A stretch of DNA of 64,000 nt. It comes from Escherichia coli. Lineage in GTDB: Bacteria > Pseudomonadota > Gammaproteobacteria > Enterobacterales > Enterobacteriaceae. Below are positions 47,919-57,408 of the stretch, piece after piece; within the stretch, counting starts at the first letter, position 1, and each line of letters opens with the position of its first letter. The notes under the pieces were generated by a model. That model was not told where the DNA came from, searched no databases, and worked only from the letters and a program-made list of their open reading frames with translations. The stretch lies in NCBI RefSeq assembly GCF_003334335.1, contig NZ_QOWQ01000007.1; one strand, written 5' to 3'. The position numbers and the translations under genes were made by a program.

Positions 47919-48003
47919 CATTCAAAACGTCTGGTTTTTCGGTCTGTGTAAGCATTACGTCATGCAAAACTGGTTGTTTCGAATCATACAAATCATAATT
48001 TTC

Positions 48004-48030
48004 TTCTCATATGCGCATCTCTTATGAGCA
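48004..48030 (+). promoter_or_regulatory. Imperfect inverted repeat TtCTCATATG-N7-CTTATGAGCA upstream of the SorC-family regulator gene (candidate operator)
   Basis: Read directly; half-site resembles the TGCTCAT palindromes at 53066-53204. Confidence 0.35.
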
Positions 48031-48079
48031 TAATCGTTATACTCTTCTGATTTATACATGTTTGCTGATGACATGATCA

Positions 48080-49057
48080 ATGGAAAAGAGAATGACGAAA
48101 CAGAAAAAAAACAGCCGCTGGCAGGGTTACGATCCTCGCTACATATACTCGCTCGTGGTCAGACGTTATTTTGCGGATATGAAAACCAAGATTGAGATTG
48201 CAGAGGAGCTTGGCGTTTCCCGCTTTAAAGTTGCCAGATTGATCGATGAGGCGATCGAACAGGATTACGTGAGGTTTATCTTCCCTAAGCAGCAAGCGAT
48301 GGATGAAGAAATCGCCAGTAATTTACGGAAAAAATTTCATCTGGAAGATGCAATTGTTCTTTCAGTTGCTGAATCCTGGACGACGCAAGAAGAACTCAAT
48401 CACAAATTGGGTGAAGTCACCGCTGAATATCTTATGCAATCTCTTCATGAAGGTATGAAAGTGGGGATCGCCTGGGGGCGTGTATTATCAAGCACGGTCA
48501 GTAAGTTGAGCAAGTTGCCTCCTTTAGACGTTGTGCAGTTATCTGGCGTACATCCGGGGATTGAGTTCAGTCAAGGGCCAATAGATCTTATTCATAAGAT
48601 CGCTGCCATTTCGCAGGGAAAAGCGCACCCAATGTACGTGCCGATGTGGGTCGATGACGAAGAGCTTGCTGCCAGACTGGCAGGTGATCCTGCGGTATTA
48701 GATACACAGCAATATTACTCACAGTTGGATGTGGTTATCACCGGGATAGGTGACTGGAAATCAGGTTCTTCAAGCTTGTGTAAAATATTTCCGGATACCT
48801 GGTGCGAAGCGTTGTTTCAACAAGATATCGCTGCGGATGTGTGTATCTCGTTGGTCAACAGGGAAGGGAAGATTCTTCATAGTCCTATTGAACGTCTGGG
48901 ATTTGGCATTTCGACGGATCAACTACAAAAAGCCAAAAAAGTGATTGGTGTCGCTGGAGGAGAAGAAAAATATGAAGGCATCCTTGCTTCGCTGAAATCC
49001 GGACTTTTGAATGTCTTAATTACTGATTTTGATACGGCCATTAAACTTCTGGATTAA
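48080..49057 (+). CDS. SorC/DeoR-type transcriptional regulator (N-terminal HTH, C-terminal sugar-phosphate-binding domain)
   Basis: 325 aa; HTH region IEIAEELGVSRFKVARLIDEA followed by a SorC-like effector domain; start could also be the ATG at 48092. Confidence 0.8.
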   Translation: MEKRMTKQKKNSRWQGYDPRYIYSLVVRRYFADMKTKIEIAEELGVSRFKVARLIDEAIEQDYVRFIFPKQQAMDEEIASNLRKKFHLEDAIVLSVAESWTTQEELNHKLGEVTAEYLMQSLHEGMKVGIAWGRVLSSTVSKLSKLPPLDVVQLSGVHPGIEFSQGPIDLIHKIAAISQGKAHPMYVPMWVDDEELAARLAGDPAVLDTQQYYSQLDVVITGIGDWKSGSSSLCKIFPDTWCEALFQQDIAADVCISLVNREGKILHSPIERLGFGISTDQLQKAKKVIGVAGGEEKYEGILASLKSGLLNVLITDFDTAIKLLD

Positions 49058-49075
49058 TAGCCATATCAGTGAAGA

Positions 49076-49106
49076 AAGGGCAGTACCGCTGATTCTGCCC
49101 TTTTAA
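49076..49106. terminator. Bidirectional terminator between the convergent regulator gene and the PTS operon
   Basis: gggcag-taccgctgatt-ctgccc hairpin followed by tttt. Confidence 0.6.
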
Positions 49107-49108
49107 TT

Positions 49109-49567
49109 TCAGGATGCTTCGAGCGTATCCTCTACATATTTAGCCACGCGCGTTGCAGGTAAATTGCGGCAAGTCTCAACAAAGGCGTTATCCTGAAACA
49201 GTGTGAATAAACGACGCAATATCGACATATGTTGATCACTGGTGGCAAATGCCAGGTTAAACATAATGCTACAATCAACTGTTAAATCAGCATCTTCCAT
49301 TTGCCCGAAAGTGACATCATTGGCGAAACGAACAATACTGATACTGTTGACATTTACCAGCGTGTAATCGGCATGGGGAATGGCGATACCCTGACCGTTT
49401 GCCATCATTAGTCCTGTCGGATAGCTTTTTTCACGTTTCAGACAGGCGTCAATGTATTCTGCAGTGATATAGCCTTTTTCCAATAATTGCGTACCAGCAA
49501 AGGTGATCGCCGTTTGATAGTCACTGATGCTGTTATCAACATCATTCACCAGAATTTCAAATTTCAT
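49109..49567 (-). CDS. PTS enzyme IIA component (galactitol-family PTS)
   Basis: 152 aa; phosphorylatable His context GQGIAIPHADYTL typical of PTS EIIA type 2. Confidence 0.85.
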   Translation of the reverse strand: MKFEILVNDVDNSISDYQTAITFAGTQLLEKGYITAEYIDACLKREKSYPTGLMMANGQGIAIPHADYTLVNVNSISIVRFANDVTFGQMEDADLTVDCSIMFNLAFATSDQHMSILRRLFTLFQDNAFVETCRNLPATRVAKYVEDTLEAS

Positions 49568-49577
49568 TGCACACCTG

Positions 49578-55257: not shown

Positions 55258-55279
55258 TTTAATAATCTGGAGTTTTAAC

Positions 55280-55924
55280 ATGGCAAAAATATTACCTTCT
55301 ATATTTGGCGCGGATATTTTACGCCTGAAAGATGAAATTCATTTTCTGGAAGAGGAACAAACCGAAATATTGCACGTTGATTTAATGGATGGCACATACG
55401 TCAGTAATATAGCCTTTGGCCCAAATCAAATTGCAGCAATGAAAAAAGCCAGTTCGATGATCTTTGACGTGCACATGATGCTGGCAAAACCTGAGCGACA
55501 TATTGATGATGTAATCAATACCGGGGCGGAGATGATTTCTGTACATTATGAATCGACGCCACATGTACATTATATTATTCAAAAAATCAAAAAAGCGGGT
55601 CGCAAAGCAGGTGTAGTGCTTAACCCTGGGACACCTGAATCTGTCATCGAGTATTTATTAGATGATATTGATTATATATTGTTAATGACAATTAACCCCG
55701 GGCAACCAGGCCAGACATTTATTCACAAAAGTCTGGAGAAAATCCGTAATGCCAAAAAAATGATATCTGGTAGAGATATTCAAATTGAAGTGGATGGTGG
55801 CGTTAATCTTGATAATGTAAAACAAGTTAAAGAAGCAGGGGCTGACCTTATTGTTGTTGGTGGTGCCTTATTTAACAAACAGCCTCGTGAAAGTTATCAG
55901 GCATTAAAAATCGCTGTTCAGTGA
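55280..55924 (+). CDS. Ribulose-phosphate 3-epimerase family enzyme (AlsE/SgcE-like ketose-phosphate 3-epimerase)
   Basis: 214 aa; HVDLMDG metal-binding motif and overall Rpe-like layout. Confidence 0.82.
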   Translation: MAKILPSIFGADILRLKDEIHFLEEEQTEILHVDLMDGTYVSNIAFGPNQIAAMKKASSMIFDVHMMLAKPERHIDDVINTGAEMISVHYESTPHVHYIIQKIKKAGRKAGVVLNPGTPESVIEYLLDDIDYILLMTINPGQPGQTFIHKSLEKIRNAKKMISGRDIQIEVDGGVNLDNVKQVKEAGADLIVVGGALFNKQPRESYQALKIAVQ

Positions 55925-56021
55925 TCACAATCTAAAAATTTCACATCCAGTTAAGTGAGGTTTTCGATTTCATATCGGGAGGAAAACCTCAGCTAAAAAA
56001 TGTCTTTAATGGAGAAAAGTA

Positions 56022-56774
56022 ATGAGTAATTTTGCAGGTAAAGTGGTTTTAGTTACCGGAGGTGCTCACGGTATTGGCAAAGGGATAGCTAAACAATTTG
56101 CTGATCGTGGCGCACATACTGTTATTGTTGACTATAACGAAGAGAACGGCAAGGCCACTGCAGCAGAGTTAACTTTTGGTGAAGTTAAATCGTTGTTTAT
56201 TAAAACAGATGTCTCCGATCCACAGGCATTAGTGGATGTACGGGAAAAGGTATTTGCTACCTTTGGTCGCATTGATGTGTTGATATTAAATGCCGGTGTG
56301 GCATTTGCCAATAAAGTTAACAATATTTCTTTTGAGGAATGGAATAAGACTATCGCAATTAACTTATCGGGATTATTTAATACCGTTAAGGCGTTTTATG
56401 ATGATTTCCTGACAAATAAGGGATCTATTGTTTATATCTCATCGGGATCAGCACTTTCGGGGACTGGGGGCGGTGTGAGTTATCCTGCCAGTAAAGCGGG
56501 AGGCGAAGGATTGATTCGTGGTCTGGCAAAAGAGTTAGGACCAAAAGGCGTCAATGTTAATGCGATTGCTCCCCGCTTAATAGACACCGGAGAGATGATG
56601 CGGGTCAACTATCCAACACAAGCCGATTTAGACGCTGTCCTGGAAAAAATACCCGTCCGTCGTCTGGGGACTATCGATGATGTGGCTAACCTGGCAATAT
56701 TTTTGGCAGATAAAGATAACTCTTATATTCAGGGACAAACCATTTTAATGGATGGTGGCCGGACTATTGCTTAA
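56022..56774 (+). CDS. Short-chain dehydrogenase/reductase (SDR); candidate polyol-phosphate or sugar-phosphate dehydrogenase
   Basis: 250 aa; TGGAHGIGKG cofactor motif, catalytic YxxxK (YPASK), NAG motif. Confidence 0.85.
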   Translation: MSNFAGKVVLVTGGAHGIGKGIAKQFADRGAHTVIVDYNEENGKATAAELTFGEVKSLFIKTDVSDPQALVDVREKVFATFGRIDVLILNAGVAFANKVNNISFEEWNKTIAINLSGLFNTVKAFYDDFLTNKGSIVYISSGSALSGTGGGVSYPASKAGGEGLIRGLAKELGPKGVNVNAIAPRLIDTGEMMRVNYPTQADLDAVLEKIPVRRLGTIDDVANLAIFLADKDNSYIQGQTILMDGGRTIA

Positions 56775-56789
56775 AAAGGGAGAGAAAAA

Positions 56790-57350
56790 ATGAGTGTTCA
56801 GGAAAATACTATTAATATTCTGCATGAATTAGAGAGTAATGCGCTGAAGATTGACGATGCTCAGGCTGCACAGTTTATTTCGCAAATCAGAAATGCCCGG
56901 CATATTTTTTTGCAGGGTGCTGGTCGCAGTGGCATTGCTATTCGCGCTTTTGCTAATCGCTTGCTGCATTTAGGTTTTTCAGTAAGCGTTGTGGGAGAAA
57001 TATCATCACCGCATACTCAACCTGGAGATCTATTAATTATTGGGTCAGGCAGTGGTGAAACTACCAGTTTGAAAAGTCTGGCACAAAAAGCAGTTGATAG
57101 CGGAGTAAACGTAGCTCTGGTAACTATGAAAGCAGATTCGACGATCGGTAAATTAGCTCAATCTGTGTTGGTACTACCAGGAAGTGTGAAAGACGATAAC
57201 AGTCGTGTTGCAGGCGCTTTCGCACAACCAATGGGCTCAGCTTTTGAGCAACTCTGCTTTATTACTTATGATGCAATTGTTCTGGAGTTGATGTCTGAAC
57301 TGGGTGAAAGCAGTGCCACAATGTTTACCCGACACGCTGATCTGGAATGA
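56790..57350 (+). CDS. SIS-domain phosphosugar isomerase (6-phospho-3-hexuloisomerase-like)
   Basis: 186 aa single SIS domain (FLQGAGRSGIAIRAFANRL...LLIIGSGSGETTS). Confidence 0.75.
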   Translation: MSVQENTINILHELESNALKIDDAQAAQFISQIRNARHIFLQGAGRSGIAIRAFANRLLHLGFSVSVVGEISSPHTQPGDLLIIGSGSGETTSLKSLAQKAVDSGVNVALVTMKADSTIGKLAQSVLVLPGSVKDDNSRVAGAFAQPMGSAFEQLCFITYDAIVLELMSELGESSATMFTRHADLE

Positions 57351-57375
57351 CCAAAGAGTTGGTAATTAGAAAGCA

Positions 57376-57404
57376 AAAAGCCTGCTAGAAAGCAGGCTTT
57401 TTTG
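57376..57404. terminator. Bidirectional rho-independent terminator shared by the PTS operon (+) and asnV (-)
   Basis: aaaaagcctgct-agaa-agcaggcttttt: perfect hairpin flanked by A-run and T-run. Confidence 0.8.
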
Positions 57405-57408
57405 AATT

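Follow-up and report, generated by a model that had tools for sequence, protein, structure and literature searches.

We analyzed a 64,000-nucleotide stretch of DNA from Escherichia coli (NCBI RefSeq assembly GCF_003334335.1, contig NZ_QOWQ01000007.1; hereafter the window), in which a segment of ~9.4 kb separates ldtA from the first of three tRNA-Asn genes, asnV. The segment holds 12 open reading frames (ORFs), all of them intact, that form two phosphotransferase system (PTS) modules, one nested within the other. We consider it probable that the segment is an old accessory carbohydrate locus, in which one module (module B) would provide a route for a polyol and the other (module A) would handle a related sugar.

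Open reading frame and tRNA calls reproduced the twelve genes that the initial annotation had placed between ldtA (46992-47918, plus strand) and asnV (57409-57484, minus strand), and its gene assignments proved correct at the family level in profile searches against NCBIfam and equivalog models, each read against its own cutoff. Its description of the segment as an uncharacterized system also agrees with our searches – we found no functional characterization or named operon in the literature, among solved structures or among database names, and the same genes are not core in E. coli, where 226 of 5,426 complete genomes (~4%) carry 80% or more of the segment. Database names for eight of the segment proteins are all generic, as are the product names in the RefSeq annotation of an identical record, that of E. 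coli strain 1506. One literature match, on hxlB and strain LF82, was rejected because it concerns a different SIS/PtsG cluster (PMC12928451).

Modular organization and regulation

To define the building blocks of the segment, we scanned species-representative genomes with its plus-strand EIIC protein (IIC2) and mapped the 12 proteins onto the resulting 36 loci by tblastn. Across these loci, IIA2-IIB2-IIC2-Rpe-SDR-HxlB forms one conserved block (module B), while the genes for DeoR, the RpiB-like protein, IIC1, IIB1 and IIA1 form a separate block (module A). Module B is found in Enterobacterales (Klebsiella oxytoca, Citrobacter, Enterobacter, Providencia, Erwinia, Pantoea, Brenneria and Izhakiella) and in Firmicutes (Enterococcus, Streptococcus cuniculi, Paenibacillus, bee-gut Lactobacillus and Breznakia), and many of its hosts are associated with plants or insects. 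Every module B encodes a dehydrogenase, an Rpe-family enzyme and an enzyme of the 6-phospho-3-hexuloisomerase (HxlB/PHI) family. At seven Enterobacterales loci, which lack module A and DeoR, the SorC gene lies immediately 5′ of IIA2, as it also does in V. cholerae; a plasmid-borne region of Pantoea ananatis, OVR-A, has likewise been listed as sorC-IIA-IIB-IIC-rpe-fabG-hxlB, without functional study (PMC5817063). DNA from loci without module A aligns to the window up to the SorC stop codon (~49060) and again from ~53064. The intervening gap (~49063-53063) therefore marks a 4 kb nested insert composed of the minus-strand operon and DeoR.

A second search, seeded with the RpiB-like protein to avoid sampling bias towards module B, placed module A in four independent contexts. 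In S. gallolyticus, a divergent DeoR gene is followed by RpiB-like, IIC, IIB, IIA and SIS genes, with no module B nearby. Tetragenococcus halophilus carries the same module A operon, alone, and here DeoR does not travel with it. Modules A and B stand in tandem in L. plantarum, and a Vibrio cholerae contig (DBLPMD010000034; locus L049, 266-12615) encodes SorC, module B and a HAD phosphatase, followed by DeoR and module A with its SIS gene. In all four contexts module A has its own SIS/PHI gene, and canonical module A pairs an RpiB-family with a PHI-family enzyme. This PHI gene is also kept in Citrobacter and K. oxytoca, between sorC and IIA1. It is cleanly missing from E. coli, Enterobacter wuhouensis, Entomohabitans and Providencia, and in each of these module B lies alongside. 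That module A loses its PHI gene only beside the PHI of module B suggests that either paralogue can stand in for the other and that both modules lead to one shared intermediate. No kinase or aldolase gene was present in any version of either module at the compared loci. The neighbors of the Enterococcus loci, HAD-type sugar or hexitol phosphatases and a mannitol-1-phosphate dehydrogenase-like gene, fit sugar-alcohol metabolism without naming a substrate.

The two modules also differ in their predicted control. Upstream of IIA2, three 14-bp palindromes (TGCTCAYRTGAGCA; 53066-53079, 53169-53182 with two mismatches, and 53191-53204) flank a conserved TATAAT-like element, and an alignment of eight loci found them conserved in hosts with and without module A. 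We take the interval that they span (53066-53204) to be the module B promoter-operator region. An operator-like box with two mismatches to the palindrome (TTCTCATATGCGCA, 48004-48017) lies 75-88 bp upstream of the SorC start codon and represents a putative autoregulation site; its half-site similarity was picked up independently in a repeat search (repeat D8). The whole window contains four matches to the palindrome (three 5′ of IIA2 and one 5′ of sorC), against 0.82 expected. In other genomes, the box, with at most one mismatch, occurs just 5′ of IIA2 in 16 of 16 SorC-bearing loci, including the tandem Vibrio locus, and is absent from 13 of 13 loci without SorC, including those of Firmicutes, where a PRD-type regulator stands instead.

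DeoR, for its part, accompanies module A in every context except T. halophilus and is absent from loci with module B alone. In Enterococcus, L. plantarum, S. gallolyticus and V. cholerae its gene forms a divergent pair with the RpiB-like-IIC-IIB-IIA operon. The divergent control region between DeoR and the RpiB-like operon (51797-52144) contains different conserved blocks with T-rich repeats in an alignment of six Enterobacterales loci. On the strength of synteny and operator co-occurrence, we predict that SorC regulates itself and module B and that DeoR regulates module A. We regard this pairing, which rests on sequence comparison, as solid, and it reverses the initial annotation, in which SorC went with the minus-strand operon and DeoR with the plus-strand operon. 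Two Pantoea loci, L013 (at 17567) and L014 (at 17435), contain an extra palindrome with one mismatch ~10 kb downstream of module B, which may be a further target of the SorC-type regulator.

Within module B, the SorC gene (48092-49057, plus strand) encodes a SorC/DeoR(B. subtilis)-type sugar-binding regulator, with full-length NCBIfam matches to the B. subtilis DeoR and LsrR models that fall under the equivalog cutoffs. Regulators of this type have an N-terminal HTH and a C-terminal domain that binds sugar phosphates, and the Pfam domain Sugar-bind is recorded for the V. cholerae orthologue. The PTS genes on the plus strand encode an EIIA (53228-53671; 137.4 bits to the GatA model, cutoff 139), an EIIB (53690-53983; 50.7 bits, GatB cutoff 95) and a Gat-family EIIC (54004-55257; 321 bits to TIGR00827, cutoff 542). 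Orthologues of this EIIC are 90-94% identical in Enterobacterales and 74-76% identical in Enterococcus and Streptococcus. The gene that follows (55280-55924, plus strand) encodes a dedicated paralogue of the ribulose-phosphate 3-epimerase (Rpe) family. It passes the Rpe model TIGR01163 (235.2 bits, cutoff 212.6), has AlsE as its third-best match (178.6 bits, cutoff 271), and gives a partial match of 34 bits to HxlA, whose cutoff is 200. Next are a short-chain dehydrogenase/reductase (SDR) family NAD(P)-dependent dehydrogenase (56022-56774, plus strand), which passes no equivalog model, and a PHI-family SIS protein (56790-57350, plus strand), which passes TIGR03127 with 209.3 bits (cutoff 160). 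A hairpin with 15-nt arms (55951-55996; TTAAGTGAGGTTTTC ... GAAAACCTCAGCTAA) lies in the 97 bp that separate the Rpe-like gene from the SDR gene and could act in mRNA stability or attenuation between the two cistrons.

Module A is encoded largely on the minus strand, by genes for a PTS_EIIA_2-type EIIA (49109-49567; 81 bits to GatA, cutoff 139), an EIIB (49578-49862; no nonsynonymous divergence, dN = 0, in four strain comparisons), a Gat-family EIIC (49886-51256; 350.6 bits to TIGR00827, subfamily cutoff 542) that is 81-82% identical to its Enterococcus orthologues, and the RpiB-like protein (51260-51796). TIGR00827 was the sole IIC model matched by either EIIC (E-values 1e-104 and 8e-96), in both cases below its cutoff, and the orthologues of both PTS sets carry the Pfam domains EIIC-GAT, PTS_IIB and PTS_EIIA_2. 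Both transporters are thus three-component Gat-family PTSs. The plus-strand regulator of the module (52145-52900) is a DeoR/GlpR-family repressor whose best match, AgaR, is below cutoff.

The RpiB-like protein is a divergent sugar-phosphate isomerase of the RpiB/LacA/LacB family, 178 amino acids long with a C-terminal extension. It passes the broad TIGR00689 model (99.7 bits, cutoff 88.3) and misses the RpiB (TIGR01120; 103.8 bits, cutoff 138.65), LacA/B and DerI (99.7 bits, cutoff 240) equivalog models. The catalytic and ring-opening residues of E. coli RpiB are Asp9, His10, Cys66, Thr68, His99 (the residue mutated in PDB 2vvr) and Asn100. Alignment with 1nn4 and 2vvr, from which substrate range is not predictable, indicated that Asp, Cys, Thr and Asn are kept while His10 is replaced by Asp and His99 by Ser. 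Because of these two replacements, the enzyme is unlikely to be a plain ribose-5-phosphate isomerase. It belongs to a tight subfamily of 172-178 amino acids (63-90% identity) found in lactic acid bacteria, Vibrio and others.

Overall, the PTS proteins, the regulators, the SDR and the RpiB-like protein all score below the cutoffs of models for characterized systems, and the cutoffs for GatA, GatB, GatC, AlsE, RpiB, DerI and PRK08005 are all missed by the segment proteins. Searches of solved structures with the four enzymes returned generic Rpe (nearest, Streptococcus pyogenes Rpe, 2fli), YckF of B. subtilis (nearest to the PHI protein), RpiB and FabG-like relatives, and no substrate clue.

A predicted isomerase-only route and its alternatives

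The gene content of the two modules leads us to propose a pathway, the chemistry of which is a testable hypothesis. The module B PTS would import and phosphorylate a sugar alcohol, and the SDR, as a putative polyol-phosphate dehydrogenase, would oxidize the phosphorylated polyol, yielding a keto-sugar phosphate. Next, the Rpe-like epimerase would act beside the carbonyl, and PHI would shift the carbonyl between the 3-keto and 2-keto positions to yield a central sugar phosphate. Such a route would need neither a kinase nor an aldolase – an isomerase-only funnel. In the version that we favor, a hexitol phosphate would pass through a 3-hexulose-6-phosphate-type intermediate to fructose-6-phosphate, with the Rpe paralogue working on the carbon equivalent to C3 of ribulose-5-phosphate. 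Module A would bring in a related free sugar through its own PTS, and the RpiB-like enzyme would perform the aldose-ketose isomerization of its phosphate. The E. coli module A, having lost its own PHI, would probably use the PHI of module B. We put forward only tentatively that this amounts to an undescribed aldolase- and kinase-free route, fed in part by module A, by which a PTS-derived polyol phosphate would reach fructose-6-phosphate or erythrose-4-phosphate through an Rpe-family enzyme that epimerizes beside a C3 carbonyl and a PHI enzyme co-opted from formaldehyde assimilation; one example would be galactitol or altritol reaching fructose-6-phosphate via tagatose-6-phosphate and 3-hexulose-6-phosphate.

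Variation among the loci bears on the first enzymatic step. In a Bacillus sp. (locus L026) and in Rouxiella (locus L020), the SDR slot is occupied by a Zn-dependent medium-chain dehydrogenase/reductase (MDR) whose best match is galactitol-1-phosphate 5-dehydrogenase (248 and 210 bits, cutoff 550). This non-orthologous replacement argues that the SDR step is the oxidation of a polyol phosphate made by the PTS.

The locus resembles several known gene sets in parts and is a member of none. Like the K-12 gat operon (gatYZABCD-gatR), it has separate Gat-family IIA, IIB and IIC proteins, a dehydrogenase predicted to act on the PTS product and a DeoR-type repressor nearby; IIA2 falls just short of the GatA cutoff, and it is a GatD-like enzyme that replaces the SDR in the two module B variants. 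Unlike gat, it lacks the GatY/GatZ tagatose-bisphosphate aldolase, has an SDR in place of the MDR enzyme GatD, includes an Rpe-like epimerase, PHI and a SorC-type regulator in module B, and encodes IIB and IIC proteins well under the gat equivalog and subfamily cutoffs. The K-12 sgc cluster (sgcA, sgcB, sgcC, sgcE, sgcR, sgcQ and sgcX) is itself uncharacterized. Like the segment, it has a PTS of the Gat family, an epimerase of the Rpe family and a regulator of the DeoR family, but it has no SDR, PHI or RpiB-like gene and the segment has no SgcQ or SgcX homologue. The segment epimerase scores 117 bits against a cutoff of 376 with PRK08005, which we take to be an Rpe-family model built on SgcE. 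The ribulose monophosphate (RuMP) pathway pair HxlA/HxlB is represented by one half: the HxlB-family protein passes its cutoff and is nearest to B. subtilis YckF/HxlB, whereas no HxlA (3-hexulose-6-phosphate synthase, HPS) gene exists in the segment or at related loci. That non-methylotrophs carry a PHI gene inside PTS sugar operons suggests that the enzyme shifts a carbonyl in catabolism.

Several points weigh against the proposed pathway. No experiment or published phenotype links any substrate to the locus, nor is it established that PHI works catabolically beyond formaldehyde assimilation. The Rpe paralogue, which clears the ordinary Rpe cutoff, could simply be a ribulose-5-phosphate epimerase for pentitol catabolism. 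The SDR has no diagnostic family match, FabG-like models scoring level with sugar dehydrogenases. The reliance of module A on the PHI of module B is read from gene loss alone, and the loci used for module B synteny were retrieved via IIC2 and are thus biased to that module. Promoter-like sites, among them TTGACA-18-CATACT at 51859-51830 on the minus strand, were not enriched in our scan relative to shuffled sequence, and their positions are leads only.

We judge it rather unlikely that module B is instead a PTS operon for a pentitol (D-arabitol, xylitol or ribitol) with xylulose-5-phosphate or ribulose-5-phosphate as its product. Rpe would then balance the pentose phosphates, the RpiB-like enzyme would form ribose-5-phosphate, and the SIS protein would be an accessory isomerase, for example of arabinose-5-phosphate. 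Consistent with this, the Rpe paralogue passes the true Rpe cutoff and is nearest to Gram-positive Rpe, the RpiB-like protein scores best against RpiB models, and many hosts are associated with plants or insects. Gat-family PTSs reportedly transport pentitols in Firmicutes. A Gat-type PTS, a polyol-phosphate dehydrogenase and Rpe/RpiB paralogues also occur together in the pentitol operons of Listeria, Enterococcus and Lactobacillus, where the regulator is of the PRD type, like that of module B in Firmicutes. However, these operons use MDR dehydrogenases, include transketolase and other pentose phosphate genes and are not known to contain PHI. The known pentitol-phosphate dehydrogenases are, to our knowledge, MDR and not SDR enzymes. 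Transketolase and the other pentose phosphate genes typical of the Listeria operons are absent here, and no Listeria locus is among the close relatives of the module B EIIC in species-representative genomes. A PHI-family SIS gene is present in every module B and in canonical module A, though pentitols would not require it, and the RpiB-like protein both misses the RpiB cutoff and lacks two histidines of E. coli RpiB. Transport of a pentitol by a Gat-family PTS has been described for D-arabitol in B. methanolicus (PMC6685057).

It is less plausible that the segment serves D-allose, D-allulose (psicose) and allitol. Module A would import D-allose and the RpiB-like enzyme would form allulose-6-phosphate; module B would import allitol or allulose, the SDR would produce allulose-6-phosphate, and the Rpe-like protein would act as an AlsE-type 3-epimerase to give fructose-6-phosphate. 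This scheme would account for the co-occurrence of both modules, and the equivalent D-allose steps in K-12 are performed by RpiB and the Rpe-family protein AlsE (bioRxiv 10.1101/2024.11.07.622513), the latter supplying the third-best model for the segment epimerase. The D-allose regulon (alsRBACEK plus rpiB) is similar in that RpiB-family and Rpe-family enzymes bring a rare hexose phosphate to fructose-6-phosphate, but it relies on an ABC (ATP-binding cassette) transporter and a kinase where the segment has PTSs, and the segment adds an SDR and PHI. The AlsE score is well under its cutoff (178.6 against 271), as the RpiB score is under its own (103.8 against 138.65). PHI would be superfluous to this scheme, yet it is universally conserved. 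Moreover, S. gallolyticus has module A alone, without an epimerase, and could not reach fructose-6-phosphate unless the SIS protein inverts C3.

A tetritol or tetrulose pathway resembling that for erythritol in Brucella is a doubtful candidate. Erythritol or threitol would be converted to a tetritol phosphate, then by the SDR to a tetrulose phosphate, and on through the epimerase, a PHI-like shift and the RpiB-like enzyme to erythrose-4-phosphate, with module A importing erythrulose directly. The Brucella pathway proceeds through a dehydrogenase, a racemase, a ketose-ketose isomerase and an RpiB, reportedly EryB, EryC, EryH and EryI, and the four enzyme types of the segment mirror these. Neither kinase nor aldolase would be necessary. 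RpiB His99 helps ring opening, which acyclic tetrose phosphates do not need, and the RpiB-like enzyme has Ser at this position; in addition, the DerI model scores level with the generic family model. Set against this are a DerI score far under its cutoff (99.7 against 240), Rpe and PHI proteins that pass models built on C5 and C6 substrates, and the dependence that module B alone would have on a housekeeping RpiB. Gat-family PTSs are not known to take C4 substrates. The tetritol systems of Brucella and Mycobacterium (EryB, EryC, EryH, EryI; LerI, DerI) resemble the scheme for the segment in that a dehydrogenase and then nothing but epimerase and isomerase steps, one of them by an RpiB-family enzyme, lead to a central sugar phosphate, with no aldolase. 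They differ in relying on an ABC transporter and a kinase instead of a PTS, and only the RpiB family is homologous.

If the chemistry that we favor is correct, 6-phospho-3-hexuloisomerase would have a catabolic role outside methylotrophy, and PTS, dehydrogenase, epimerase and isomerase would make up a compact route for a polyol or rare sugar – compounds now common in sweeteners and plant material. This isomerase-only pathway would be widespread, extending from lactic acid bacteria to Vibrio, Enterobacterales associated with plants and insects, and a small share of E. coli, LF82 and ST1193 among them.

Age of the segment and polarity of the empty allele

We compared the insertion site with its empty counterpart. 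The K-12-lineage strain MC1061 lacks the segment and has ldtA, 55 bp and then tRNA-Asn. In the empty-site alignment, homology between the window and K-12 stops at 47894, within the last codons of ldtA, and restarts at 57355, with 34 bp in K-12 replaced by 9,460 bp in the window. The initial annotation had set the left edge of the segment at the end of ldtA. This position does not hold against K-12, where the breakpoint lies inside the gene, but it does hold against E. fergusonii, whose DNA stays homologous to the window as far as the end of the ldtA stop codon and departs from it a few bases beyond, which makes ~47919 a fair left edge of the foreign DNA. The segment had also been described as ending exactly at the 3′ end of the tRNA gene, a classic integration point. 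We found instead that the right junction is 54 bp off the tRNA 3′ end and past a symmetric hairpin (AAAAAGCCTGCTAGAAAGCAGGCTTTTTT, 57375-57403). This hairpin is the terminator of tRNA-Asn and probably also ends the plus-strand operon. It belongs to core DNA that separates the segment from the tRNA gene, and the 54 bp are identical to K-12 sequence.

Other observations in the initial annotation were upheld. The segment is AT-rich, with a guanine-cytosine (GC) content of 42.5% against 49.3% and 47.6% in the flanks. Integrase and transposase genes are absent among the 12 ORFs, all of which encode regulators, PTS components or sugar enzymes. The 25-nt tRNA 3′ end, with three mismatches allowed, matched only the three tRNA genes in the window, no flanking direct or inverted repeat stood out at the segment borders in a repeat search, and an Rfam scan returned tRNA as the sole match. 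The lack of an att-like repeat, together with a junction beyond the terminator, means that there is no signature of site-specific tRNA integration. A low-GC stretch beyond the third tRNA-Asn gene was considered as an island and rejected; it is core DNA (yeeN, amn).

Sequence divergence among carriers indicates that the segment is not recent. We compared the window with LF82, Z1323HEC0016, E105 and A29, using cobU, cobS, cobT, ldtA, nac and cbl as flanking genes. Pooled synonymous divergence (pS) of the 12 segment genes in these four pairs was 0.089, 0.088, 0.052 and 0.044, and that of the six flanking genes in the same pairs was 0.091, 0.083, 0.054 and 0.051. The ratio of nonsynonymous to synonymous divergence (pN/pS) was 0.05-0.06 for the segment and 0.08-0.10 for the flanking core genes, and in the window as in the four divergent carriers the annotation gives every one of the 12 genes as intact. 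Having diverged with its chromosomal surroundings under strong purifying selection, the segment is old at this site and functional.

The 3′ end of ldtA polarizes the two alleles. In the window, the last seven codons and the stop (47895-47918, plus strand) encode an LdtA that ends in ..PVNINRNGF, which resembles ..PVNINRTAF in E. fergusonii, ..PVNINRSAVESSF in K. aerogenes and ..PVNINAGAIN or ..PVNINAGAIH in two of four Citrobacter sequences. The K-12-type allele has an unrelated 34-bp tail, and its LdtA ends in ..PVQISSGSRQMF in K-12/MC1061 and in ..PVQISSGSRQIF in a retrieved 311-amino-acid representative. Judged by these C-termini, carriers keep the ancestral ldtA end and the K-12 allele is derived. 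The ancestral tail in carriers and a pS equal to that of the flanks mean that the K-12 state is best read as a later deletion, and not, as the initial annotation implied, the carrier state as a gain wedged between ldtA and tRNA-Asn. The deletion would have removed the segment plus 24 bp of ldtA and left a 34-bp filler (CAAATTAGTTCTGGTTCAAGACAGATGTTTTAAG; locus L002, 4904-4937), which supplies the derived LdtA tail in K-12-type genomes. A search for the source of this filler found no match with up to seven mismatches in the window or any fetched locus, and its unexplained origin tells against our account insofar as the deletion scenario is not fully reconstructed.

Base composition provides a hint as to where the genes came from. 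The GC content of the cluster is 1-11 points under that of its surroundings in every Enterobacterales host (~3 or more except in K. oxytoca, locus L007) and within ~3 points of its surroundings in Firmicutes, a contrast that speaks for an origin in Firmicutes. We considered reading the protein identity of 90-94% between distant genera as recent horizontal transfer and rejected this, since DNA identity is only 70-77%. In other Enterobacterales, protein identity is ~90% at this level of DNA identity, which therefore indicates old, constrained orthologues. In our reconstruction, low-GC foreign DNA would have entered at the site flanked by ldtA and the asnV terminator ahead of the split of E. coli into phylogroups, and one deletion allele would later have become dominant. 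We regard the evolutionary result, an old segment and a derived empty allele, as solid.

These data make it improbable that the segment is a recent, classic island that integrated site-specifically at the asnV 3′ end and later lost its integrase and att sites. A low GC content relative to the flanks and carriage by ~4% of genomes would fit such an island, and asn tRNA genes are known hotspots at which integrase-borne islands, the high-pathogenicity island (HPI) and pks, land (PMC8209727). One variant has an integrase pseudogene beside tRNA-Asn, both modules adjoin a phage-type integrase gene in V. cholerae, and both are found on Klebsiella IncF plasmids. However, the junction lies past the terminator in sequence shared with K-12, no extra copy of the tRNA 3′ end or flanking repeat exists, across phylogroups the segment is as diverged at synonymous sites as the flanking core genes, and it is the carriers that have the ancestral ldtA end. 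The integrase of the one variant (locus L003) is part of a different element, which truncated the segment through the insertion sequence IS1. Low GC content beside a tRNA gene is thus not equivalent to recent integration, and the reference K-12 arrangement is here the derived, deleted state.

That the segment is a decaying, non-functional remnant heading for loss is scarcely credible: it is absent from 95% of genomes, truncated in 33 (some disrupted by IS1 or IS5) and without the module A SIS gene, but its 12 ORFs are intact in the window and four divergent carriers, its pN/pS is lower than that of flanking core genes and its operators are conserved.

Distribution and neighboring variation

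Consistent with its description as accessory in the initial annotation, the segment is a minority feature of E. coli. Nearly all of the 5,426 complete genomes have ldtA (5,418), and 5,133 (~95%) have the K-12-type empty junction. Any part of the segment is present in 259, including 33 with a partial segment, in some cases bounded by IS elements or interrupted by IS1 or IS5. Of the partial alleles listed, all but one keep the left part and lack the tRNA-proximal right part. In E. coli 2018-18.25PC (locus L003, 5174-8725), only sorC is left, cut by IS1, and a tyrosine-integrase pseudogene then abuts tRNA-Asn. The partial alleles and this IS1/integrase variant point to ongoing erosion from the tRNA side, and the variant shows that elements with an integrase do make use of this tRNA.

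Carrier lineages include LF82 and ST1193. The full nested 12-gene composite is also found on conjugative IncFIB/IncFII plasmids of K. pneumoniae, beside IS5. Together with the Pantoea onion-virulence plasmid region, these clinically relevant E. coli lineages and the Klebsiella plasmids are settings in which a defined substrate could explain niche differences. On one such plasmid, NZ_LR890357 (locus L040, 5587-15253), the composite adjoins IS5 and siderophore genes, and a 110-amino-acid hypothetical ORF at the position of the module A SIS gene may be a SIS remnant. A 393-kb E. coli record in PLSDB (CP088875.1), filed as a non-mobilizable plasmid, contains the whole segment at 97.1% identity and may be a chromosomal fragment mislabeled as a plasmid. 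The tandem modules of V. cholerae, which adjoin a phage-type integrase gene, may sit on a true integrative island.

The surroundings of the locus vary as well. To the right of hxlB, LF82 (locus L041, 14486-20260) lacks tRNA-Asn and nac and encodes a Gabija-like pair, a protein with a UvrD-helicase domain and an ATP-dependent nuclease, along with further genes, which suggests that the asn-tRNA cluster there holds a defense island or has been rearranged. In E. fergusonii (locus L045, 10994-20927), ldtA is followed by SMR efflux genes and a glycyl-radical-enzyme microcompartment cluster of the choline-utilization type, which replaces the asn-tRNA/nac region; an intact pdu operon lies upstream. 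On the other side of the locus, the window contains an EutP/PduV pseudogene remnant and a hypothetical ORF upstream of cobU (~43900-44420), where LF82 (L041, 1-1320) and 2018-18.25PC (L003, 1-1500) instead carry pocR and a cobalamin riboswitch, so that polymorphism extends to the pdu/cob remnant region as well.

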